IMG/VR virus record: IMGVR_UViG_3300034069_000411
Strand: one strand, 5' to 3'
DNA length: 64,000 nt
Source of the DNA: a virus
Shown here piece after piece: positions 1,408 to 63,997 of this stretch; positions within the stretch are counted from its first letter, which is position 1, and each line of letters starts with the position of its first letter. Position numbers and translations under genes: made by a program. The notes under the pieces are model-generated. The model was not told the origin of the DNA. It saw nothing but the letters and a program-made list of their open reading frames with translations, and made no database searches.

Positions 1408-1626
1408 ATGCCCCATCCCACCGTCGTCATCCCCACCGATTTTGACCTGACCCCCGTCGGGAAGCGCCGGGTTAAGGTCAGGCCGTCACTGATCCGGTGG
1501 TTCGTATCCGGCCGCCGCTACCACGCGCTGCCGATCACCGCCGCCAACATTGCCCTGTCGCGTGAGTGGGTCGCCAACGCCGGCGCACCGAACCACCGCC
1601 CCCAGCCCCGGAGCCTGTTTCAATGA
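1408..1626 (+). CDS. hypothetical protein (72 aa)
   Basis: ATG ORF. Its stop overlaps the next start (ATGA). Confidence 0.5.
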   Translation: MPHPTVVIPTDFDLTPVGKRRVKVRPSLIRWFVSGRRYHALPITAANIALSREWVANAGAPNHRPQPRSLFQ

Positions 1627-2987
1627 CCACCGCCATCGCCTTTCCGACCACCGTCGCGGATCTGATCGAGGAGTACGCGGCCAAGGACGCCGCGATCGAG
1701 GAAAGCATCGCCGCGTTCGACCGCGCCTATGACGCTCTCGGCATGTCAGCCACCGTGCGCGGGACCTACGTCGAACCCATCGGTTCGAAGTCCTACCTCT
1801 ACCCGGCGTCGCTACGTAAGAACCTGCTGATCTCCGGCTGGCGCGCCGTCTACGAGCGTCTCCGGATCAAGACGATCGCGAGCGCGAACGACCGCAAGCT
1901 GTTCGACCGGGCGCTGGCGTCGCCGCCGCCGCTGACGATGGAGAATGCCAAGGCGACCTTCGGCGACTACCTGATCCGCCCGCGCTTCCACATCCTGCGC
2001 GGCCTCGCCGAAGTGTTCACCGGGCTCGACGCCGCGTACAAGTCGCACTCCAAGGTGCGGATCGGCGTCAAGGGTCTGCCTAAGCGCGTCATCCTGAATG
2101 GCTGGACGGGGTCGGGCGGTTTCGGTCGCGGTTACGGTCACGACCTCTTCCAGAACATGGCGAACGCTCTCGCCGCGGTGCGTGAGCAGCCGGGCCTAGA
2201 ATGGATCGAGATGATCGATCTGGACGATCAGATGAAGACCGGCGACGCCGTGATGGACGGCCGGACGCTGACCCAGACCGTGCACGGCGGCGAGGACCGG
2301 ATCTATCAGGCACCGAACCGCGGCCTGACGGTGCGTCGGTTCGGCAACGGCAACGCGCACGTCTTCTTCGACCAGGACGCACTCCTAGCCGTGAACAGGG
2401 GCCTCGCCGAGTTCTACGGCGAGGTGCTGCCGGACGCCGAGCCGGAGGGCGTCAGGCCGACCGCAAGCACCGCTGTGTCCAAGGACCTGCAATTCTACTG
2501 GACGTCGGCCGCCGTCGCCGAAGAGGCGCTGAACTTCGCCGGCTTGCCGAGCCCGCAATCCTACAGCGGGCGGTACCCGGCCCGCCGCGTGCTGGAGCCG
2601 TCATGCGGCGACGGCCGAATCCTCGACGCGATACGCGCGCGCGGTCACGACGCCCTCGGGATCGAGTACCACCCGGGCCGGGCGGCCGAGGCGCGCGCGA
2701 AAGGGCACGCCGTCCTGACCGCGAACTTCTTGGAGGAGCCCGCCACAGCCGACTTCGACACGGTGATCATGAACCCGCCCTTCTACGGCCGGCACTACCT
2801 CCTACACGTCAGGCATGCCCTCGGGTTCGTGAAGCCCGGCGGCACGCTGGTCGCCATCCTGCCGGCGACGGCGCGGTATGATCACGGCGAGTTGAGCGGC
2901 AGCTGGCGGGATCTACCGGTCGCCTCATTCGCCGATTCGGGAACAAACGTCCCGACGACGATGCTGCGGATCAGCAAACCGCGCTAA
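1623..2987 (+). CDS. N6-adenine DNA methyltransferase with a large N-terminal domain of unknown function (454 aa)
   Basis: C-terminal motif I VLEPSCGDG and motif IV IMNPPF (gamma-type order). The N-terminal ~290 aa are unassigned (possibly DUF4942-like). Confidence 0.8.
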   Translation: MTTAIAFPTTVADLIEEYAAKDAAIEESIAAFDRAYDALGMSATVRGTYVEPIGSKSYLYPASLRKNLLISGWRAVYERLRIKTIASANDRKLFDRALASPPPLTMENAKATFGDYLIRPRFHILRGLAEVFTGLDAAYKSHSKVRIGVKGLPKRVILNGWTGSGGFGRGYGHDLFQNMANALAAVREQPGLEWIEMIDLDDQMKTGDAVMDGRTLTQTVHGGEDRIYQAPNRGLTVRRFGNGNAHVFFDQDALLAVNRGLAEFYGEVLPDAEPEGVRPTASTAVSKDLQFYWTSAAVAEEALNFAGLPSPQSYSGRYPARRVLEPSCGDGRILDAIRARGHDALGIEYHPGRAAEARAKGHAVLTANFLEEPATADFDTVIMNPPFYGRHYLLHVRHALGFVKPGGTLVAILPATARYDHGELSGSWRDLPVASFADSGTNVPTTMLRISKPR

Positions 2988-3398: not shown

Positions 3399-3575
3399 AT
3401 GGCCCGACTGACCATCATCGCCCGCCTCGGCATCGTACTCGAGGCGGCCCGCGCCGAAGCCGCGTCAGCGTTCGTCGACCACACGGACGACGACGCCTTT
3501 GTCGCCCATAGGTCCGCTAACCGCCGCGCCCAGCGCTGCCGCCGCGCCCTTCGCACCCTCGGAGCCGTGGCCTGA
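3399..3575 (+). CDS. possible small ORF (58 aa)
   Basis: Hand-translated ATG ORF (MARLTIIARLG...) filling the gap after 3395. Below the ORF-track cutoff. Confidence 0.25.
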   Translation: MARLTIIARLGIVLEAARAEAASAFVDHTDDDAFVAHRSANRRAQRCRRALRTLGAVA

Positions 3576-9073: not shown

Positions 9074-9092
9074 CGCGCTACCTCCCCTGCTG

Positions 9093-9311
9093 TTAGGCGT
9101 CGGACGGCTTAGGATTGCCACCGCGCGCCATGGTGCCCGCGGCTCCGATCTCTTCAAGGTCGCCCTCGTCGAGCCCCAACGCACCTGCCTGCTCATCGAG
9201 CCCGGCCTTCATGCTGGCGTGCAGGACATCGAGTTCGGCGCTCTTTCCTACCGCGGCATGGGCGGCCTGCAGCTTGCGGCTGATATCGATCACGCGGTCT
9301 TTAGCGTTCAT
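9093..9311 (-). CDS. hypothetical acidic protein (72 aa)
   Basis: ATG ORF with an AT-rich upstream region. Confidence 0.45.
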   Translation of the reverse strand: MNAKDRVIDISRKLQAAHAAVGKSAELDVLHASMKAGLDEQAGALGLDEGDLEEIGAAGTMARGGNPKPSDA

Positions 9312-9358
9312 TTTTCATCCAGTATTACGGGGTTGGTGAATTACAGGGATTACGCCGC

Positions 9359-9571
9359 TTACGCGGTTTTGAAAGCCACAATATCCTCGCCCGGATCGCT
9401 GGCGTTTCGTCCCCAATTAAACTTTTGAGCCGCGCCCTTTCGCCACACCGCCATACCGCCATCGGTCTTTCGGAGGATGATGATCACAATGGTTTGAGCG
9501 GGGACCGGGCAGCTTCCGCCTTCCCATGAGGTCCAAGGCGAGGACGCCTCGTCTATATTTTCTTCGGCCAT
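9359..9571 (-). CDS. hypothetical protein coupled to the tailspike (70 aa)
   Basis: TAATG overlap with the tailspike stop. Possible fibre chaperone by position only. Confidence 0.45.
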   Translation of the reverse strand: MAEENIDEASSPWTSWEGGSCPVPAQTIVIIILRKTDGGMAVWRKGAAQKFNWGRNASDPGEDIVAFKTA

Positions 9572-12324
9572 TACATTTTCTCCACACGAATTTTAAACGC
9601 CGCGCTTGCAAGATCGACGGTCCCGTTAGGGTTTCCCGTTGGGTTTGTAATGAAGAACTTCACAGTGTTTGCGGCGCTCACTCTCGCATGGATCGTCAGC
9701 CCCTTACTATCGCCGGGGTACGTCATACGAACGCTATCGCCGACGACCGCGCCGGTAACAGTAACCGTTTGCTCCGCGTCTACGGCCCCGGGCGCAAGGC
9801 TCGGCACGTCATAGGCTGCCGTCACCGCGTCGATGAAGAGCGCGCCCGACTTATACCATACAGCTTCTGTCGTGACGGTGGTCGACGTTTCGCTAGGCAT
9901 GACCGTGGCGACCGCGCACGAATAGCCAAGGCACTTGTAGAAGGCCGGGTTTGACGTGAACGCAAACTCGCCAATGGCATAGTCTTGCCCGGTGGGTGGC
10001 GTGTTGACGTACTGGTGGATCTTTCGCCCGTTGCCATCATTCCGAAGCACAAAGCCGTTTGGAAATACTGTTGTGACGTTGTTTAGGTTGTTGGCGGCGG
10101 TATTACGCACGACGGGGCTTGAGCGCCCGTAGCGGGAGGTATCGCCCCTAGCGGCGAAACCGATGGGACTTACCGAGTTTGCAAACGTGACGGTGAAGCC
10201 CCCGTTATTGGCCTTCAGAACAAAGCGCAGGTCTTCATTAAACTGCGAACCGGCTCTGTAAATCTCACCCGGGTTCGCTCTATCAGCGGTGTTGTAAGAA
10301 TAGACGTAGTCACCAAACGAAACTTTGGCAGCAGCGGTTTTCGTATAGGCAAACGCGCCCATGCCTACGTTTGCGGCAAAAGATCCGCCCGTCCCTGCCG
10401 AGACGGCCATCCACGGCGTGCGATCCGTATAGCCGGTATCGTTCTGGCCTCCGATGATCATCGACGGTGCGATTACATGGCCAACGCAAGTACCGCCCTC
10501 GATATAAAGATCAGTGAACACCGAGCGCGCGTTGCCGTTGTTGCTGAATACGCAATTCGAAGCGATGTACGTCCCCGTATTCGACCACAGCGGGGTCAGC
10601 CAATAGAAGGCGTAGTTATCGCCAACACCGAAGGCTGTGCCGGTCATGGTAAAGCTAAAGCCGGGCCCATTGAACTGCTGGTTGATAGTGCCCGTACCGA
10701 CCAGCGCGCCGCTGTTCTGGATAGTTACCGTAAACTCGGTCGTACTGGTCGCGGTGACGATATACGTGGCCCCAACATTAGCGGTCGCGTCGCGCGTCAG
10801 GTTTGAAAGGACTCCGTTACCGGTATTGGTGTGGCCGTTGAAGCTGTCCCTGTACCCATAGGTATAAGCGCCCATGTCATACCAGACATTCTCGTTTGTT
10901 CCGGGAACGGTCGAGGTTCCGATGCCATCAGTGATGCTGACAAGATCATAGGTTCGGTCGTTGTAGACGACACGACCGAGTTGGCGTCCGTTAGTTCCGT
11001 GGACCGCGCAGCCGGTCCAGCAGTTGCCCAGGAACGACACGTCCATGATGCCGCCGCAGCCCGAGCCAAGCACCTCTACCCCGACGCAATGGCCGGCATT
11101 TGCATCGATCCCGGCGACGTAGATGGCGTGAAGACCGGAATTCGCAATGCTGACGCGCGTGAGCTGGAAATCGTTCGCGTTGCCCGCGGTCAGGTTAGTA
11201 CCGAGATTGCCGTCCGTACTGCTGTTGGCAACGATGTTCAGATTGTTGCCCGGAAACCCATTTATGAACACGTCCTCAAAAGTTGCGCGGGCCCGCATCC
11301 AGACACCATGCTTCGTCCGATCAGTGCCCCCTAGGCTTTCGATAAGCATGTCCTTGTAAGACGAGCCATCGGCGGCGCGAACCGTACCCCGCGTAACAAC
11401 CTGCTCCATGTCAGTGTTGTTGCGATTGACGACGATGCCGTGAATATTCTGCGCGAATACCAAACTCGTATTTGCCGCGCCGGCCATCCCGCCCCCGGCC
11501 CCGCGGAAGTCCCACCGGGCGTGAAGATTGTGGGGACGAGTATGGTAGAACCGTCCCGGACCAACACTAACTTTGCGGCCACTAAATCCGTAAAGGATCA
11601 ACCCGATGGCCGGGTATGCATTGTTCAGCGCCTGCATCTCATCAAATGCGGGTGAGCAGTCGTTCGCCGCGGTTGCCGTGCCGGTATAGGGCACAGAGCC
11701 GAACGCCTCGTAAGCCCACTCCTTGTCCGCATACAGCGCCCAGCGGGTCACATTGCCGGCTTCATCCTTGGCCTTGAAGGACGAGCGCGGGTAGGCGGCA
11801 AGATAGGCGTCGTCGATGTCATTGCGGCGCTCATAGAACGCCCGACCATAACGGGCGGTCGTGTGAAAAGCAGTCATCACCATGGTAGTACCCGACGGGA
11901 TAACCTGCGGGTTCGCCCCGGCTCCGCTCGTTCGGACCGCGACGAATGACGGGATGGACATGATGTTGCCGCCCGGGTCGCCCTTGTAATAATTAGGGAG
12001 GCTCATGACCCGCTGCAGAGCGGTGTTCGCCCAAAACTTCGCGCCACGCGAGGTGCTGTCGGGCGCGCCGGAGATGGGCGCGTCGTCATTGTTGTTGGCG
12101 TACCGGCTGGCGAGCGCGGCGCTGTTCGTCGCCTTTTCCTCCTGGACGACGATCGCGGCGATCATGTTCGCCATCGTCTTGACCAGCCGCCCCAGCCGTG
12201 TCGTTACCGTGCCCGGGGGGTTGCCCGGATTGTTGCGGTCCGGCGCGCCGTTGACGACCTCCGCCAGATCATCCGCGTCGCGCTTTGCGTTTTCCATGTC
12301 CTCGGGGGTGATCAGGTCAGCCAT
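9571..12324 (-). CDS. tailspike/tail fibre with right-handed beta-helix-like central region (917 aa)
   Basis: Position after the J-like gene. N/G/T-rich repeats (NNLNIVANSS...GNANDFQLTRVSIANSGLHAIYVAG) typical of pectate-lyase-fold depolymerases. Confidence 0.7.
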   Translation of the reverse strand: MADLITPEDMENAKRDADDLAEVVNGAPDRNNPGNPPGTVTTRLGRLVKTMANMIAAIVVQEEKATNSAALASRYANNNDDAPISGAPDSTSRGAKFWANTALQRVMSLPNYYKGDPGGNIMSIPSFVAVRTSGAGANPQVIPSGTTMVMTAFHTTARYGRAFYERRNDIDDAYLAAYPRSSFKAKDEAGNVTRWALYADKEWAYEAFGSVPYTGTATAANDCSPAFDEMQALNNAYPAIGLILYGFSGRKVSVGPGRFYHTRPHNLHARWDFRGAGGGMAGAANTSLVFAQNIHGIVVNRNNTDMEQVVTRGTVRAADGSSYKDMLIESLGGTDRTKHGVWMRARATFEDVFINGFPGNNLNIVANSSTDGNLGTNLTAGNANDFQLTRVSIANSGLHAIYVAGIDANAGHCVGVEVLGSGCGGIMDVSFLGNCWTGCAVHGTNGRQLGRVVYNDRTYDLVSITDGIGTSTVPGTNENVWYDMGAYTYGYRDSFNGHTNTGNGVLSNLTRDATANVGATYIVTATSTTEFTVTIQNSGALVGTGTINQQFNGPGFSFTMTGTAFGVGDNYAFYWLTPLWSNTGTYIASNCVFSNNGNARSVFTDLYIEGGTCVGHVIAPSMIIGGQNDTGYTDRTPWMAVSAGTGGSFAANVGMGAFAYTKTAAAKVSFGDYVYSYNTADRANPGEIYRAGSQFNEDLRFVLKANNGGFTVTFANSVSPIGFAARGDTSRYGRSSPVVRNTAANNLNNVTTVFPNGFVLRNDGNGRKIHQYVNTPPTGQDYAIGEFAFTSNPAFYKCLGYSCAVATVMPSETSTTVTTEAVWYKSGALFIDAVTAAYDVPSLAPGAVDAEQTVTVTGAVVGDSVRMTYPGDSKGLTIHARVSAANTVKFFITNPTGNPNGTVDLASAAFKIRVEKM

Positions 12325-35834: not shown

Positions 35835-36500
35835 CTACTCCCCGTCACGGCGGGTGACAATCGTGAACCGCTCCGCGATCCGGTCGGCCCCCGCGGTCAG
35901 CTGCGGCAGGTCAGGGCGGTCGGCCGGGGGGCGATCCCAAGACGGCTCCCATGTCGCGCAGGCCTCGTCCTGCGGTACGCGGACCAGCCGCCCGGCGTCG
36001 AGGTCGGCGAGGACAGAGACGATCAGCCGCACCCCCATCGGGAACAGCGCCTCGCGCCACAGATCCGAGGCGCGCGTGCCCGGTCGGATCATCACCCAGT
36101 CGGCCGCCGCGATCGGACCGCCATCGACCCGGGGTGACAGCCAATAGATCGACCCGCCGGTGACCGGGTCGCCCATGTGGCACGCCCACTTCACGGCGTC
36201 CCGGCCGCGGTGGCGTGGTAGCAGTGACGGGTGGTACCCGATGCCGCCCAGCAGCGTGCGCGACAGGGCGCGGTCGCTGACGATGACGTGAGCGTGTGCG
36301 CAGACGATCAGGTCGAGCCCCTCGGGCAATTCGTCGGCGGTGAGGCGGGCCGCGCTGACCGGGATGCCGAGACGGCGGGCCTCCCAGTCGAGGCGGTCGT
36401 CGATCGGCGCGAACACGGCGGCCACATCGTGCCCGGCCTCTACGATCGCGCGCAGCGCCGCGGCCCCGAAACTCCGCTGTCCAACCAGAGCAACCCTCAT
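35835..36500 (-). CDS. formyltransferase, Fmt/PurN-like catalytic domain only (221 aa)
   Basis: Start refined to the ATG in the ATGA overlap (ORF 35835..36857). MRVALVGQ, HPSLLPRHRG, PQDEACATW linker. No Fmt C-terminal domain. Confidence 0.8.
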   Translation of the reverse strand: MRVALVGQRSFGAAALRAIVEAGHDVAAVFAPIDDRLDWEARRLGIPVSAARLTADELPEGLDLIVCAHAHVIVSDRALSRTLLGGIGYHPSLLPRHRGRDAVKWACHMGDPVTGGSIYWLSPRVDGGPIAAADWVMIRPGTRASDLWREALFPMGVRLIVSVLADLDAGRLVRVPQDEACATWEPSWDRPPADRPDLPQLTAGADRIAERFTIVTRRDGE

Positions 36501-37687
36501 GCCGCCGCCTTCTCCAATGCTTTGCGGGCGGCCCATGCCTCCCCGCGATATTTGAACCCCTGCACGGCGCGGAAGTGCCCGCCGTACCCGGCAACGCCGG
36601 ACTCGAAATTGCCCTTTTTCTCGGTCTGTTTCCGCTCCGACTTCTTGAGCGACGCGATCGACTTCGACCTCGACGACCCGTGGAGGGACGCGCTGATCTG
36701 TTCCCACCTGGGATCGCGGCGCAGCGCGGCGCATAGGCCGGGGTGGCTGGTGTGGAAGAAGCCGCACTTCACGCGGTCGCCAAACTGGCCGAGGCCGGTC
36801 ACCTCGCGCTCCATGACCCAGTTTAGGAACTTCATCCCCACGCCGGCCCCCTGCCACTCGGGCATGATCACCATGCGGCAGCCGCGAATCCCGCCGGTGT
36901 TCAGGCGGGGCGCGATCCCGAGGTGGGCGACCGGCTCGCCGTCGACGAACGCGACGAAATACCGGCAGGCCACCATGCGGGGCAGTTTCAGATAGTGATG
37001 CGGCTCAAAGAGGTCCCAGTAGGAGCCGTCGACCTGCCGAATCTCAAGTTCGATAGGAGGTCTTCGCCTAAGACGCCTCCCTGCGGCATCCCGCTCGAAC
37101 ACGCCTGTCGACGTGTCAAAAATCCAATCGGGCTCGAGCCAGTCGAGGACGTCGTAGTGGCATGACAGCAGCACCGCCTTACCCGGGGTGCGCCGCCACG
37201 CCTTTTGGAACGCGAGCGCGCCCACCTTCGCGATCTGGCGGTCGACGACGGACGTGAACTCGTCGATCACGACCGCGGCCGGCTCCTCGGCGACGATCCG
37301 CGCCAGTTCGGCCCGGAACTTCTCGCCGTTCGACAGCACCCCATAGGGCCGCAGCCATGACGGGACAGAGCCCAGCCCGACGGCTGACAGAGCGGCGGTA
37401 ACGGAATTGAAGTCGCCCCCGGGCGCGATGGCGTCGACGATCGGGGCGTCGTCAGGCCAGACCCCGCCGGTCCACAGCGCCTCTTCGCCGAGGATGCGAC
37501 GACCTAGCGAGGTTTTGCCGGATCCAGACGGGCCGACGACGACGCCGACTTTCCAGTCATCGTCATCGATCGCTAGATCGGCGTCCAGGTCGAACGCCTG
37601 ACCGGACTCGGCATTGAACAGGGATTGCACCCGAGCAGCGCGATAGCTCTCGTAGTGCGGGCATCGGTTTCGGATCTCGATTTTCAT
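36497..37687 (-). CDS. ABC-type ATPase fused to a GNAT acetyltransferase domain (396 aa)
   Basis: Start refined (GGAGG SD, MKIEIRN). GPSGSGKT, LSNGEKFR, VVIDEF, then the GNAT motif RMVIMPEWQGAGVGMKF. Confidence 0.7.
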   Translation of the reverse strand: MKIEIRNRCPHYESYRAARVQSLFNAESGQAFDLDADLAIDDDDWKVGVVVGPSGSGKTSLGRRILGEEALWTGGVWPDDAPIVDAIAPGGDFNSVTAALSAVGLGSVPSWLRPYGVLSNGEKFRAELARIVAEEPAAVVIDEFTSVVDRQIAKVGALAFQKAWRRTPGKAVLLSCHYDVLDWLEPDWIFDTSTGVFERDAAGRRLRRRPPIELEIRQVDGSYWDLFEPHHYLKLPRMVACRYFVAFVDGEPVAHLGIAPRLNTGGIRGCRMVIMPEWQGAGVGMKFLNWVMEREVTGLGQFGDRVKCGFFHTSHPGLCAALRRDPRWEQISASLHGSSRSKSIASLKKSERKQTEKKGNFESGVAGYGGHFRAVQGFKYRGEAWAARKALEKAAA

Positions 37688-37722
37688 GCGGCCTCCGGGG
37701 GCCGCCATACGCCAGATGCAAA

Positions 37723-37760
37723 TGACCCGCCAGTCCGGGAGGGGGTGGACTGGCGGGTCA
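37723..37760 (-). terminator. strong hairpin between the parB-like and ATPase-GNAT genes (terminator/attenuator candidate)
   Basis: GACCCGCCAGTCC-N10-GGACTGGCGGGTC, a perfect 13-bp stem. The minus-strand read is followed by ATTTGCATC. Confidence 0.5.
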
Positions 37761-37820
37761 CCTTGGGCCGCACCGCGCGAAAGGGGGGGACGCGTCGGGC
37801 ACCCCCACCATATCACCGGA

Positions 37821-38498
37821 TCAGACGACGACAACCTTGACGTTTTCGGCCCCGTAGATCTCGCGCAGGCTGTTGAAGCAGGACTCCTGCTCGCCCTCTG
37901 ACGCGCACTTCACGATGACGGCAAACTGGTCGACGTGCTGATAGTCGCTGTCGTTTTCGGTACCGCCGGTCTTGCGGGTAGAGCCGGTGCCGGCATCACC
38001 GCCGCCCATGTCGACGAGAGCGTCAGCGCCGAAGCCCAGCGGGGCCATGTCGAAGTCGACCGCGGCGAGGGCGTCGAGCTCTCCGGTCAGGATCTCGATG
38101 TCCCAGCCGGCATTCTCGGCGATCCGGTTGTCGGCGAGCGCGTAGGCGCGCCGCTCCTCATCGGTCCATCCCTCGCACCCGATGACGGGTACAGCCCCGT
38201 CGGGGAGCAGCGTGCCGCCCCTGTCCTCGCCCGGGGCCATGTAGATCCGGCCGCCCTCGCCGTAGATCACCTGCGCAGCTGCGCGCCGGCCGTGCCCGGC
38301 CCTGATCAGGTCATCGGCGAGGATCGGGTTCGTCCAGCCGAACCGGCGGATCGACGCAACGATCTCGGCGATCTGCTCGGGGCTGTGCGTGCGGGCGTTG
38401 CGGGGATCCGGCGTCAGGTCCTCGACCTGGCGTAGCTGGATGGCGGGCTTCCGAGCGGCGGGTTTCGTCATGGGCGCAATCGGTAGACCCAGTGCCAC
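37821..38498 (-). CDS. ParB/Srx-like N-terminal domain protein (225 aa)
   Basis: DPRNARTHSPEQIAEIVASIRRFGWTNPIL...GHGRRAAA. GTG start, with an ATG alternative at 38471. Confidence 0.8.
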   Translation of the reverse strand: MALGLPIAPMTKPAARKPAIQLRQVEDLTPDPRNARTHSPEQIAEIVASIRRFGWTNPILADDLIRAGHGRRAAAQVIYGEGGRIYMAPGEDRGGTLLPDGAVPVIGCEGWTDEERRAYALADNRIAENAGWDIEILTGELDALAAVDFDMAPLGFGADALVDMGGGDAGTGSTRKTGGTENDSDYQHVDQFAVIVKCASEGEQESCFNSLREIYGAENVKVVVV

Positions 38499-60177: not shown

Positions 60178-61107
60178 ATGGACAATTTTCCCGAACCTGT
60201 ACTCGCCCTGTTACGGCGAGAGGGCACCGGCATCAGCTGGACCCACCTGACCTTCAACCCGTGGATCGGGTGCCAGAAGGTCAGCCCGGCGTGCGCGGGA
60301 TGCTACGCCGAGATCGTCGCAAAGAACCGGCTGAACGTCGCGTGGGGCCCCGGCGCTGAACGCCGCCGTACCAAGCCGGCGACGTGGGCGAAGGTCCGAC
60401 GCTGGCAGCGCGTAGCGGCGGCCTCCGGGGTCACCCTGCGCGTCTTCTGCGCCAGCCTCGCCGACTGGGCCGACAACGCGGTCGACGATGCGTGGCGGGC
60501 TGACCTCGCCGCCGAGATAACGGCCACCCCCAACCTCCAGTGGCTGATGCTGACGAAGCGCATCGGAATTGCCCGGCGCGCGCTGGAGCGGATGTTTCCC
60601 GACGGGGTGCCGGCCAACGTCGCACTGGGCGTGACGATCGCCAACCAGGAGGAGGCGGACCGTGACATGCCGAAGGCTCTGTCGGTCAAGGCCGGGCTCG
60701 GTATCCGCCGCCTGTTCCTATCATGCGAGCCACTGCTGGGGCCGCTCGATCTGACGAAGTGGCTGGCGGTGCCCGGCGCGATCGACCTCGTCATTGCTGG
60801 CGGCGAGAGCGGTACAGAGGCTCGGCCGATGCACCCGGACTGGCCGTGGATCGTCCAGGGCGATTGCGAGGACGCCGGGGTGCCGTTTCACTTCAAGCAA
60901 TGGGGGGAGTGGAAGCCTTGGGCTCCGAGCGACCGGGGCCGGGTCAGGCACGTCAGCCTGCGCGACGGGGCCTCGGGCGACGAGCCCGGCCGCATTGACG
61001 GCGAGCGCAACCTTCGCGCCGACACGCGCCCGGTGAGCCGGGCTGGAACAGTAACTGCAGGCCGCACACTGCGCGGCAAAGAGCATCAGGAGCAGATCGC
61101 ATGCTGA
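60178..61107 (+). CDS. phage Gp37/Gp68 (DUF5131) family protein (309 aa)
   Basis: ISWTHLTFNPWIGCQKVSPACAGCYAE and GGESG..ARPMHPDW, FHFKQWGEW motifs. Confidence 0.75.
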   Translation: MDNFPEPVLALLRREGTGISWTHLTFNPWIGCQKVSPACAGCYAEIVAKNRLNVAWGPGAERRRTKPATWAKVRRWQRVAAASGVTLRVFCASLADWADNAVDDAWRADLAAEITATPNLQWLMLTKRIGIARRALERMFPDGVPANVALGVTIANQEEADRDMPKALSVKAGLGIRRLFLSCEPLLGPLDLTKWLAVPGAIDLVIAGGESGTEARPMHPDWPWIVQGDCEDAGVPFHFKQWGEWKPWAPSDRGRVRHVSLRDGASGDEPGRIDGERNLRADTRPVSRAGTVTAGRTLRGKEHQEQIAC

Positions 61108-61754
61108 ACGACACCATTAACGCCGCTGAGGCGGCGAAGCATATCTACGGCTCCACCATCGGCCTCGGCGACGGCAGCTATTTCGACTATCTCGACCCGG
61201 CCTCGACCGGGATGACGATGGAGGATTACGCCTACGCTCTGGCCTATACCTGCCGGTTCCGGGGCCAGACCTGGTCGAACGGCCGGCGGGTGTTCTACGG
61301 CGTCGGCCAGCACTGCGTCATCGGTACCGAGCGGATGCTTGTCGACGGGCACAGCGTGCGCGATGCGCTGGCCTTCCTGATGCATGAGAGCGACGAGGTG
61401 CCGTGGGGTGACTTCGCGAGCCCGGCGAAGCCGCTGATGCCTGCCGAGTTCCGCGCCCTGATCAAGTCGAACGGCAAGGCGATCGACCTGCACTTCGGCA
61501 TCGTCACGCCCGACCCTGACCTGATCAAGCGGTATGACATCCGCCTGTTCGCTACGGAGAAACGGGATCTGATGCCCCAGTTCAGCCGCCAGACTTGGAC
61601 GAAGGATCAGATCAGCACCGCCGCTGCCGAGGGGTACGAGCCGTTCGATTCCGTCATTACGCCGGCCGCGCACCCGGACGAGGCCGCGGAGCGGTTCCTG
61701 ATGCTCTATTCCGTCCTCACCGATCGCCTCGCACGCGAAGGCGCAGCCGCATGA
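61101..61754 (+). CDS. HD-superfamily hydrolase-like protein (217 aa)
   Basis: EDYAYALAYTCRFRG, VGQHCV, FLMHESDEVPWGD resemble phage HD/YfbR-like proteins, with HE in place of HD. Confidence 0.5.
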   Translation: MLNDTINAAEAAKHIYGSTIGLGDGSYFDYLDPASTGMTMEDYAYALAYTCRFRGQTWSNGRRVFYGVGQHCVIGTERMLVDGHSVRDALAFLMHESDEVPWGDFASPAKPLMPAEFRALIKSNGKAIDLHFGIVTPDPDLIKRYDIRLFATEKRDLMPQFSRQTWTKDQISTAAAEGYEPFDSVITPAAHPDEAAERFLMLYSVLTDRLAREGAAA

Positions 61755-63997
61755 GGCTCGCTCCTGTCACCAAGACCTACCGCGTCGGCCACCTGTTCTG
61801 CGGCGTCGGATCCGGCGCGGCCGGCTTCAACGATGCGAACCCGAGGGTCAACGGCGTCGCCGCGCGGTTCGTGTGCGCCGGGGGCGTCGACTCCGATCGC
61901 GGGGCTATCGACAACTTCGATCTGATCACCGGGTCGAAGGGCACCGTCATGGATCTGTTCGACCGCGAGCAGTTCATCTCCTTCCACGGTCACGAACCCC
62001 CGGCCGGTTGGCGGGAGGCCAACCCCGCCGACATCCGTCGGGCGCACGGCGACCTTCCGCTCGACGTGATGTTCCTGTCGGCCCCGTGCAAAGGCTTCTC
62101 GGGGCTGCTGTCAGCCAAGGCGTCGGGGGCTGACAAATATCAGGCGCTTAACGCCCTGACAGTGCGCGGCGTCTGGCTGACGCTTGAGGCGTACAAGGAT
62201 GACCCGATCAAGATCATCCTGTTTGAGAATGTCCCGCGGATCCTGACGCGCGGCCGGGCGCTGCTCGACAAGATCCAAGCTCTGCTCCGGGCCTATGGGT
62301 ATGTCTTTGCAGAGACGACGCATAACTGCGGCGAGATCGGCAACCTCGCCCAGAGCCGCAACCGGATGCTGATGGTTGCGCGGCACTCCGCGTCGGTGCC
62401 CCCGTTCCTGTACCAACCCGCAAAGTCCGCCCTGCGCGGCGTCGGTGAGGTCATCGGCCTGCTACCGCTCCCGGGTGACCCGATGGCGGGGGGCATGCAC
62501 CGCGTCCCGCAGCTGCAGTGGAAGACGTGGGTGCGCCTCGCGTTCGTCCCAGCCGGTAAGGATTGGCGCGCGCTCAATGATCTGGCTGTCGAGGACGGCC
62601 ACCTGCGCGACTACGGGATCGTGCCCGAGGTGAAGATGCGCGACAACCAGCTGGGCGTGCTGGACTGGGCTGACACCGCGCCCGTCCTGACCGGTCAGCG
62701 TTCGCCGGCACAGGGCCGTTTCAGCGTCGCGGATCCTCGAATCGAGAGCGTCCACAACGAGACGCTCGGCGTTCGCCCGTGGGAGGCCGCGGCGCGCGTC
62801 GTCGCCGGGGCGAGCCGGCCGGCCAACGGCGCGCATAGCGTCGCGGATCCCCGACCCCAGCAGGCCAACCAGAGTTTCGCCCAGTACGGGGTCAAACCAT
62901 GGGAGGAGACCGCGGCAACGGTCACCGGACAGGCGGCACCTGGAGGCGGGCCTAACTCGATCGCTGACCCGCGCCTCGGCCGCGTTGCCCATTCGAACGT
63001 CTACCGGATCGCTCGATTCGATCAGCCGTCGTCGGCGGTGACATCCAGCCGCGACACCGCCGTCGCGGATCCGCGCGCGACGACAGGATTCGAAGGGGCG
63101 GGCAAGTACAGGGTCACCGCCTACGGCGAGGCCGCCGGTACCGTCATCGGCGGGTCGACCACGGGACAGGGGGCGTTCGCGCTCGCTGACCCCCGGCCGA
63201 CACACGGGCCGAACGCCCACGCGACTAAGCACAAGGTGGTCGGGTACGATGACACGGCCCCGGTGGTCACCGGCAGCGACCGCGTCGGGTCCGGCGCGCT
63301 GTCAGTTGCTGACCCGCGCCCCGGGTACACCGACGCGCACCACAACGTCATGAAGGTCACGCCGTTTGACGAGCCTGCGGGCACCGTGACCAGCGGGGGC
63401 GGCCCCAGCAACGGGGCGATCAGCGTCGCCGACCCGCGGCCTGTCGGGCTCAATGCCGACGCCCGCGAGGGCTACGCGACGCAGGGGCACTACGGAGTGC
63501 TTGGCTGGGATGAGACGAGCAAGGCGGTGCCGGGGTACGCAAAGTACGATCGCGGCAACTGGTCGGTCGCTGACCCCCGGGATCTTGAAATGGAGGCCGC
63601 ACCCGCGCTGCCCGCCGCCAACACCCGCCTCGTCGCCCGCATCATCGCGCGCGACGGCACATGGCACCGGCCCTTCACGACGCTTGAGCTGGCGGCGCTC
63701 CAGTCGATCTTCGATCCCGAGGAGGTGTTCGCGGTCGACGAGGCAACCGGTCAGTGGACCCGGCGGGCCGAGTTCGATCTGATCGGGGGCAGTGATCAGA
63801 CGAAGCGCGAGTGGATCGGCAACGCGGTGCCGCGCGCCGCCGCCCGGGGCATGGCGGAAACGATCGGCGAGACGCTGCTTCTGGCGGAACAAGGCGAGAC
63901 GTTCGTGTTGTCGAGCCGGGCGATCTGGACGAAGCCTCTAGCCCTCGCGCTGGCCGTCGACCCGCGCCAGTCGGTGTGCGGCGAGGTGATCCTGTGA
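61751..63997 (+). CDS. DNA (cytosine-5) methyltransferase with eight tandem TRD-like repeats (748 aa)
   Basis: Start refined to the ATGA overlap. Motifs FCGVGSG, PCKGFS, ENV, QSRNR, GNAVP in order. Repeat array lies between motifs VIII and IX. Confidence 0.85.
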   Translation: MRLAPVTKTYRVGHLFCGVGSGAAGFNDANPRVNGVAARFVCAGGVDSDRGAIDNFDLITGSKGTVMDLFDREQFISFHGHEPPAGWREANPADIRRAHGDLPLDVMFLSAPCKGFSGLLSAKASGADKYQALNALTVRGVWLTLEAYKDDPIKIILFENVPRILTRGRALLDKIQALLRAYGYVFAETTHNCGEIGNLAQSRNRMLMVARHSASVPPFLYQPAKSALRGVGEVIGLLPLPGDPMAGGMHRVPQLQWKTWVRLAFVPAGKDWRALNDLAVEDGHLRDYGIVPEVKMRDNQLGVLDWADTAPVLTGQRSPAQGRFSVADPRIESVHNETLGVRPWEAAARVVAGASRPANGAHSVADPRPQQANQSFAQYGVKPWEETAATVTGQAAPGGGPNSIADPRLGRVAHSNVYRIARFDQPSSAVTSSRDTAVADPRATTGFEGAGKYRVTAYGEAAGTVIGGSTTGQGAFALADPRPTHGPNAHATKHKVVGYDDTAPVVTGSDRVGSGALSVADPRPGYTDAHHNVMKVTPFDEPAGTVTSGGGPSNGAISVADPRPVGLNADAREGYATQGHYGVLGWDETSKAVPGYAKYDRGNWSVADPRDLEMEAAPALPAANTRLVARIIARDGTWHRPFTTLELAALQSIFDPEEVFAVDEATGQWTRRAEFDLIGGSDQTKREWIGNAVPRAAARGMAETIGETLLLAEQGETFVLSSRAIWTKPLALALAVDPRQSVCGEVIL
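62647..63580 (+). repeat. 8 x 34-47-aa coding tandem repeat ending in S-V-A-D-P-R
   Basis: ADPR codons recur from 62729 to 63569. Units share ..GV.xW(D/E)..A.TVTG......G..SVADPR. Confidence 0.8.

Follow-up and report, generated by a model that had tools for sequence, protein, structure and literature searches.

Can an array of eight small repeat units, standing where monospecific cytosine-5 DNA methyltransferases (C5-MTases) carry one folded recognition domain, allow a single enzyme to methylate several unrelated sequences? This question is raised by a gene on the plus strand of the virus record IMGVR_UViG_3300034069_000411 (IMG/VR), a stretch of 64,000 nucleotides which was analysed over its full length and is referred to here as the window. 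The gene, an intact open reading frame (ORF) at positions 61751-63997 including the stop codon, encodes an orphan C5-MTase of 748 residues whose assignment draws on Pfam and Foldseek matches. Between its catalytic motifs VIII and IX lie eight tandem units of 34-47 residues, each closing with the tetrapeptide ADPR. Comparison with relatives showed that these units fall into discrete, conserved types which are exchanged as whole cassettes, suggesting by analogy with known multispecific enzymes that they may serve as minimal target-recognition modules.

Motif order, fold and profile matches identify the protein as a member of the C5-MTase superfamily. A preliminary description of this DNA, made from the sequence without database searches, had reported all six motifs in canonical order, and the ORF read-out bears out each position: motif I FCGVGSG for binding of S-adenosylmethionine (61796-61816, residue 16), motif IV PCKGFS with the catalytic Cys113 (62084-62101, residue 112), motif VI ENV (62225-62233, residue 159), motif VIII QSRNR (62351-62365, residue 201), a motif IX region, HRPFTTLELAALQSIF (63665-63712), with the IX-like FTTLELAALQSIF at residue 642, and motif X GNAVP (63818-63832, residue 690). 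Motifs VI, VIII and X were recovered both by motif search and in the alignment of relatives, motif X also by a whole-family profile. Invariant across 60 relatives are G18 and G20 of motif I, P112, C113, K114 and G115 of motif IV, the ENV triplet, R203 and R205, H639 to T644, and N691, V693 and P694. Pfam PF00145 scored 42.7 bits (cut-off 22) but covered residues 11-213 only (the N-terminal half), and TIGR00675 reached 21.4 bits, under its cut-off of 100.65. The core was modelled confidently by AlphaFold2 (AF2), with a predicted local distance difference test score (pLDDT) above 85 for residues 10-240 and of ~77-93 for residues 650-710. A Foldseek search with this core returned MET1, DNMT1, HhaI and M.MpeI at E values of 5e-11 to 1e-8 and a probability of 1.0; the whole-family profile gave only weak matches to PDB sequences, namely to motifs IV-VIII and X of DNMT1 and MET1. 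The predicted activity is methyl transfer to cytosine C5, yielding 5-methylcytosine (5mC). A protein identical to this MTase (P0001) is present in two public sources.

The array fills the recognition-domain slot between motifs VIII and IX, as had been proposed from the sequence. ADPR occurs in it exactly eight times (residues 327, 365, 405, 439, 479, 520, 560 and 607; nucleotides 62729 to 63569) at periods of 38, 40, 34, 40, 41, 40 and 47 residues, precisely as first described. This 4-mer is seen 8 times, against at most 5 occurrences of any 4-mer in 2000 shuffles of the protein, and leave-one-out hidden Markov models (HMMs) built without ADPR scored the units at 15.7-33.6 bits each, the best of 300 shuffles reaching 12.8 bits; the repeat is thus no product of chance. 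Pairwise identity among the units is 21-45% at the protein and 38-59% at the DNA level, and Tandem Repeats Finder reported no array in the unit region; the duplication is therefore ancient, and recent slippage or an assembly artefact, already discounted in the preliminary description, is ruled out by the DNA divergence of the units. Positions common to all units are V13, W16, A20, V23, G25, G32 and the closing S-V-A-D-P-R. Two stretches of the unit are type-specific and strongly conserved within a type, one comprising the first ~12 residues and the other the 6-8 residues following a [T/A/V]-[V/I/L]-x-G motif; the residues from V13 to the dipeptide of that motif vary freely. The lead-in to motif IX, a role that had been suggested for ADPR itself, is a separate sequence, DGTWHRPFTT.

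Clustering of 945 units from 120 close relatives, on the residues preceding VADPR, resolved ~16 recurrent types with an identity of 63% within and 25% between types, and in these terms the array of the MTase reads A-D-E-H-B-G-M-C. Unit 1 (type A; 62615-62740, residues 289-330) leads the array in 114 of the 120 relatives, and unit 8 (type C, a long form of 47 residues; 63440-63580, residues 564-610) closes it in nearly all, such that the two types frame the array. Unit 2 (type D; 62741-62854, residues 331-368), unit 3 (type E; 62855-62974, residues 369-408) and unit 4 (type H, a short form of 34 residues; 62975-63076, residues 409-442) are replaced in other relatives by types K, J and F, respectively, the members of each pair alternating at the same place. 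Unit 5 (type B; 63077-63196, residues 443-482) belongs to one of the two most widespread types; it is almost always present among the close relatives and occurs also in the enzymes of phages phiCTX and PBC5. Unit 6 (type G; 63197-63319, residues 483-523) and unit 7 (type M; 63320-63439, residues 524-563; found in 22 of the 120) are optional, as are types I, L, N, O and P, and the optional types occupy varying positions. Together these combinations make up 93 architectures among the 120 relatives, for example A-E-D-J-F-B-M-G-C, A-D-G-E-F-B-O-C and A-D-M-J-F-B-I-G-C.

The units also have histories of their own. From one relative to another, corresponding units share 64-94% identity, compared with 70-82% for the catalytic core, and individual pairs are clearly mosaic: relative to P0007 the core is 73% identical and units 3 and 4 are 90-94% identical, relative to P0016 unit 4 is only 50% identical, and relative to P0004 unit 2 is 45% and units 5-6 are 91-92% identical. 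Three alleles from Pseudomonas aeruginosa prophages (P0122, P0225 and P0223) are ~99% identical outside the array; in P0225 unit 2 has been swapped for a different type, P0223 carries two other units, one of them of type G, in place of unit 4, and the breakpoints between the three fall at ADPR junctions. The codons of the junctions share a core of ~15 nucleotides, GTCGCNGAYCCNCG, which may act in recombination. Over a wider representative set we estimated roughly 60-110 recurrent unit types, with type B in 37 and type G in 46 of 150 family representatives, Pseudomonas enzymes included, so that both types are shared from sphingomonad to Pseudomonas enzymes. In distant members type A is not always first, and phiCTX has B and H in the opposite order. 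The view of the units as independent modules is thus sustained by the number of architectures, the variable positions and the whole-unit swaps in otherwise near-identical alleles. Flanking the array, residues 214-288 and 611-660 are highly conserved family-wide, and any variation in specificity must therefore lie in the array; the segment before it (62390-62614, residues 214-288), modelled by AF2 with moderate confidence, is likely to be the constant portion of the small domain. Recognition modules of a multispecific enzyme would be expected to show such independent, exchangeable and conserved behaviour, which supports this role for the cassettes.

At the level of motifs, the layout of a unit resembles a known recognition domain. 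In M.HhaI two recognition loops flank Thr250-Leu251, the arrangement typical of C5-MTase recognition domains, and each unit places two type-specific segments round its dipeptide. SPR possesses three x-T-[L/I/V]-x motifs and rho11s and H2 four each, one per recognition module, and the dipeptide of the units aligns in register with these modules, with scores that are not significant. On this analogy, we regard the chances as evenly balanced that the protein is an orphan multispecific C5-MTase in which a common core employs the cassettes singly as minimal recognition modules. Each cassette, or most of them, would then be a minimal target-recognition module; one at a time would dock beside the catalytic loop, read a short DNA sequence and present its cytosine, the remaining cassettes looping out as a flexible string. 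Expression from the early recombination/replication operon would result in methylation of replicating phage DNA at several unrelated motifs, protecting it simultaneously from more than one restriction system of the host, and recombination at the conserved VADPR junctions would reshuffle unit content between phages. A more far-reaching version, which we put forward only tentatively as something short of probable, is a combinatorial system in which at least ~60-110 types of cassette are self-contained readers, combined in any number (3-12) and any order on one C5 core and exchanged between bacterial classes at ADPR, giving ~eight unrelated motifs in the present enzyme.

A number of results weigh against the cassettes being recognition modules. 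Pfam and NCBIfam gave no match in residues 289-610; the unit profile recovered no MTase among PDB sequences, its best match being NF-kB at E = 1.2 (chance level); a unit HMM scored the modules of SPR, rho11s and H2 (from GenBank) at -2.5 bits or lower; and hhalign returned a probability of 0.15% for units against the Bacillus phage modules. The likeness of the unit to the core of a target recognition domain, as perceived in the preliminary description, thus finds no statistical backing in these comparisons. Constructs in which one unit alone linked the N- and C-terminal parts of the protein were matched by PF00145 still in the N-terminal half only, an outcome neutral as to whether a unit fills the recognition part of that profile. 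Structure prediction likewise assigned the repeats no fold: in two AF2 runs, on the MTase with 60 sequences and on a five-unit protein of the phiCTX type with 108 sequences, the whole array had a pLDDT below 50 and no secondary structure, and the segments before and after it were modelled as folded. This outcome argues against a rigid repeat domain such as a solenoid or propeller, and would suit equally modules that dock and become ordered on core and DNA and a disordered region with another role. Every unit has a [T/A/V]-[V/L] dipeptide, and of the unit consensus first drawn up the repeat pattern holds; the first Thr of its 'T-V-T-G' does not, since Thr is found there in only three of the eight units and Val or Ala elsewhere (family-wide, T 354, A 302 and V 182). 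The array is near neutral, with an isoelectric point of 6.5 and a net charge of -2 over 322 residues, and so is not basic; the same values exclude an acidic DNA mimic of the Ocr/ArdA type. A backbone of types A, D/K, E/J, F/H, B and C recurs in nearly all close relatives and is mostly colinear, which could mean that it serves structure instead of anti-restriction targets specific to the host. The literature searched contained no methylome or biochemical data for any family member.

To these points is added the occurrence of restriction-type sites, counted over the whole window (positions 1-64000) as observed against expected numbers. GGCGCC is absent against 54.6 expected, AGCGCT occurs twice (at 3532 and 16022) against 27.5, CCWGG 47 times against 161 (observed/expected 0.29), and CTCAG/CTGAG nine times against 86.5 (observed/expected 0.10). 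With several such sites strongly avoided, protection by methylation is incomplete at best. Further deficits were seen for CACGAG (2 against 27), GAGCAC (4 against 31.5), CTGAAG (7 against 28), CGTACG (0 against 10) and CACGTG (0 against 8). GGCC, CCGG, GCGC and CGCG, by contrast, are as frequent as expected (700-1150 sites for each), which leaves the genome heavily exposed in the absence of protection and speaks for the multispecific reading; most GC-rich hexamers likewise match expectation. Avoidance of some sites together with expected frequencies of others implies that the lineage leans on avoidance for the former and is fully exposed at the latter. This pattern is compatible with partial methylation protection without proving it, and the avoidance could stem from selection by host restriction or from decay of methylated sites.

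Whether all of the units read DNA, or only some, is a separate issue. It is conceivable, and in our judgement doubtful, that only one or a few of them are active, such as the last unit or the backbone types, with the rest as pseudo-domains or spacers and one to three specificities in all. Inactive 'pseudo' recognition domains have reportedly been described in Bacillus phage enzymes by Lange et al. (1991), rho11s and H2 carry four T-[L/V] modules each and have fewer than four reported targets, and in the present family the fixed ends of the array in close relatives (types A and C) and the scarcity of Thr at the key dipeptide would fit such a scheme. However, all internal unit types are about as conserved as the catalytic core, and types B and G persist across enzymes that are ~45% identical overall, which is unexpected of decaying pseudo-domains; in addition, the whole-unit replacements in near-identical alleles suggest selection on unit content. 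An unlikely alternative is that the array has no part in recognition, being a flexible and conditionally ordered region for holding DNA non-specifically or for processivity, oligomerisation, binding a partner from phage or host, or relaxing the enzyme until cytosine methylation is nearly context-free, with any targets set by the conserved flanks. Its unstructured appearance in both AF2 runs, its composition (59% G/A/P/S/T/V and 5% L/I/M), the lack of detected homology to known recognition domains and the near-universal backbone agree with this, and the folded segments on either side could make up the small domain alone. Yet disordered tethers rarely hold at least ~16 discrete types with 63% identity within a type and two conserved type-specific segments per unit, and the array is neither acidic, as a DNA mimic would be, nor basic. 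Furthermore, the unit is essentially confined to this MTase family, with 549 matches among 1.84 billion representative proteins, which ties its function to the methylase core.

Very improbable, in our view, is a composite reader in which the units jointly contact one long or degenerate target and their number tunes one complex specificity. The mostly colinear backbone types of close relatives would accord with it, as would the separated recognition elements of M.(phi)BssHII (cited in PMC8936443), but optional units stand at varying positions, B and H follow one another the other way round in phiCTX, and anything from 3 to 12 units is tolerated. Moreover, C5-MTases act on one flipped cytosine within a short site. 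Returning to singly used recognition modules, the proposal of a multispecific MTase made in the preliminary description is supported as to enzyme class, position of the array and behaviour of the cassettes, and lacks such support as to the likeness of a unit to a target recognition domain; nor did structure prediction yield a fold for the array.

Several known systems offer points of comparison. In the MTases of Bacillus phages, tandem modules confer multiple targets and the published role is to protect from several restriction systems (PMC8936443, PMC12707154), and a 2025 review co-authored by REBASE's curator cites recognition-domain arrays in one polypeptide for Bacillus temperate phages only. 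M.SPRI, M.Phi3TI, M.Rho11sI, M.H2I and M.SPBetaI are, like the present MTase, orphan phage enzymes with one core; their contiguous modules of ~40-50 residues likewise lie between motifs VIII and IX (here eight of 34-47 residues), have a small-residue plus [L/I/V] dipeptide amid variable segments, and differ between related phages. Unlike the present family, they number 3-4 modules rather than 3-12, lack the strict ADPR junction, have a core of another lineage (motif IV triplet PCQ, here PCK), and belong to Bacillus instead of Proteobacteria, where the function of the modules is putative. Because the modules show no relatedness (-2.5 bits; 0.15%), this MTase falls outside the Bacillus multispecific lineage; if the proposed function of its units is correct, it would nevertheless work like those enzymes. 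M.(phi)BssHII, from a Geobacillus stearothermophilus prophage, is the subject of Schumann et al. (1996) and Sethmann et al. (1999), cited in PMC8936443 and PMC4081073, and is, as proposed for this MTase, a prophage C5-MTase with many targets; its recognition elements are at separated locations (PMC8936443) and not in a regular tandem array. M.HhaI, M.HaeIII, M.MpeI and DNMT1 share the catalytic fold and motif order, whereas the eight units are without detectable similarity to the one folded recognition domain of such monospecific enzymes. The five targets that M.(phi)BssHII is said to have are, to our knowledge, the most for any characterised enzyme. Type I HsdS subunits also exchange specificity modules as cassettes between near-identical alleles, a case of the domain movement known in restriction-modification proteins (PMC3467074), but serve an adenine MTase and have two domains of ~150 residues in place of up to twelve of ~40. 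M.EcoGII is likewise a prophage-borne orphan MTase, thought to be broadly protective (PMC5778455, PMC12707154), although enzymes of its type modify adenine and owe their breadth to one non-specific domain, whereas here breadth would come from many modules.

The enzyme belongs to a large and apparently uncharacterised family, on which the literature searched contained no paper. More than 5900 clusters (at 90% identity) matched the MTase at E below 1e-5. The family occurs in Alpha-, Beta- and Gammaproteobacteria, carried by their temperate phages and prophages, with close relatives in Sphingomonas, Sphingobium, Novosphingobium and Sphingopyxis. Sinorhizobium phage PBC5 gp34 (L002 3956-6211) is 56% identical and has eight units; the original PBC5 record (AF448724) breaks this gene up into four ORFs, orf51-54, each labelled 'unknown'. 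Other phage members are from Marinobacter phage PS3, Achromobacter phage CF418P1 and many Pseudomonas phages, including phiCTX orf41 (L001 2938-4716), which has five units, is still annotated as 'hypothetical protein' in RefSeq, and represents a type found in very many P. aeruginosa genomes. Family members have 3-12 units, most often 7, and the original remark that eight would be exceptional is accurate in relation to characterised enzymes, though not within a family in which 7-8 are typical. Of the 549 matches to the unit profile (E <=1e-3), 424 were at <=1e-10; all of those inspected were this MTase family or fragments of it, and no single-unit relative was among the matches listed, which are the top-scoring ones and all multi-unit. 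Some members, such as P0244 (1203 residues) and P0331 (1057 residues), contain an intein in the N-terminal catalytic half, with Hint and intein-splicing domains and, in P0244, LAGLIDADG. In P0249 (614 residues) a GcrA domain (residues 5-162, E = 5e-45) is joined to eight or nine units without the catalytic half; as the C-terminal tail looks like a frameshifted motif IX, this is probably a damaged or mis-assembled gene, and was rejected as an independent context for the array.

The window represents a siphovirus-like phage or prophage of ~67% G+C with genes for terminase, portal, tape measure and tail protein J. The MTase gene closes a plus-strand early block encoding exonuclease VIII-like, DnaQ-like exonuclease, Erf annealing, SSB, DUF5131 and PHROG 318 proteins. 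The start codon of the MTase gene (ATG) shares bases with the stop codon of the preceding gene on the same early-operon strand (61101-61754, plus strand, 217 residues; PHROG 318, annotated as a deoxynucleoside monophosphate phosphatase) in an ATGA overlap, by which the two are translationally coupled. Further upstream lies the gene for the DUF5131/PHROG 2045 protein (60178-61107, plus strand), which has a weak match to the radical-SAM 'mobile pair protein A'; the neighbours of the MTase in the phiCTX and PBC5 relatives differ from these two genes. The MTase has no nuclease gene next to it, and the enzyme is therefore an orphan. Third codon positions of the MTase frame have a G+C content of 0.83, and the gene contains antisense ORFs of up to 256 residues, including 62462-63232 (minus strand), that are rich in Arg, Pro and Gly; such a composition is common in spurious ORFs where the G+C content is high. 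Besides the MTase, a second gene putatively encoding a DNA methyltransferase-like protein was identified at 1566-2987 (plus strand; DUF4942, Pfam E = 3.7e-27, with PHROG 'DNA methyltransferase' matches), such that the phage may carry two modification enzymes. The same gene is also present at 9091-10455 of a Logan contig (L006), with a Ros/MucR-family gene nearby (L006 11128-11556). An ORF of 444 residues in the window (36497-37834, minus strand) has weak ABC-ATPase and GNAT acetyltransferase matches.

Multispecific cytosine methylases are a classic modular protein design, and all those known to us come from a few Bacillus phages and have three to five targets. Natural isogenic material bearing on the function of the units exists in the P. 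aeruginosa alleles P0122, P0225 and P0223. Should the combinatorial version be true, the enzyme would recognise ~eight motifs, more than any characterised enzyme if all eight units are specific, and no DNA-modifying enzyme would be known to have smaller portable modules for sequence recognition than these cassettes. If the cassettes are recognition modules, they would offer a set of ~40-residue parts from which programmable methylases could be engineered, and would reveal 5mC marks that routine PacBio methylomes overlook. It would also follow that a far larger, independent family in proteobacterial phages, including widespread P. aeruginosa prophages such as phiCTX, pursues the strategy of the Bacillus phages at two to three times the scale and draws on dozens of cassette types, which would explain how these temperate phages cross restriction barriers.

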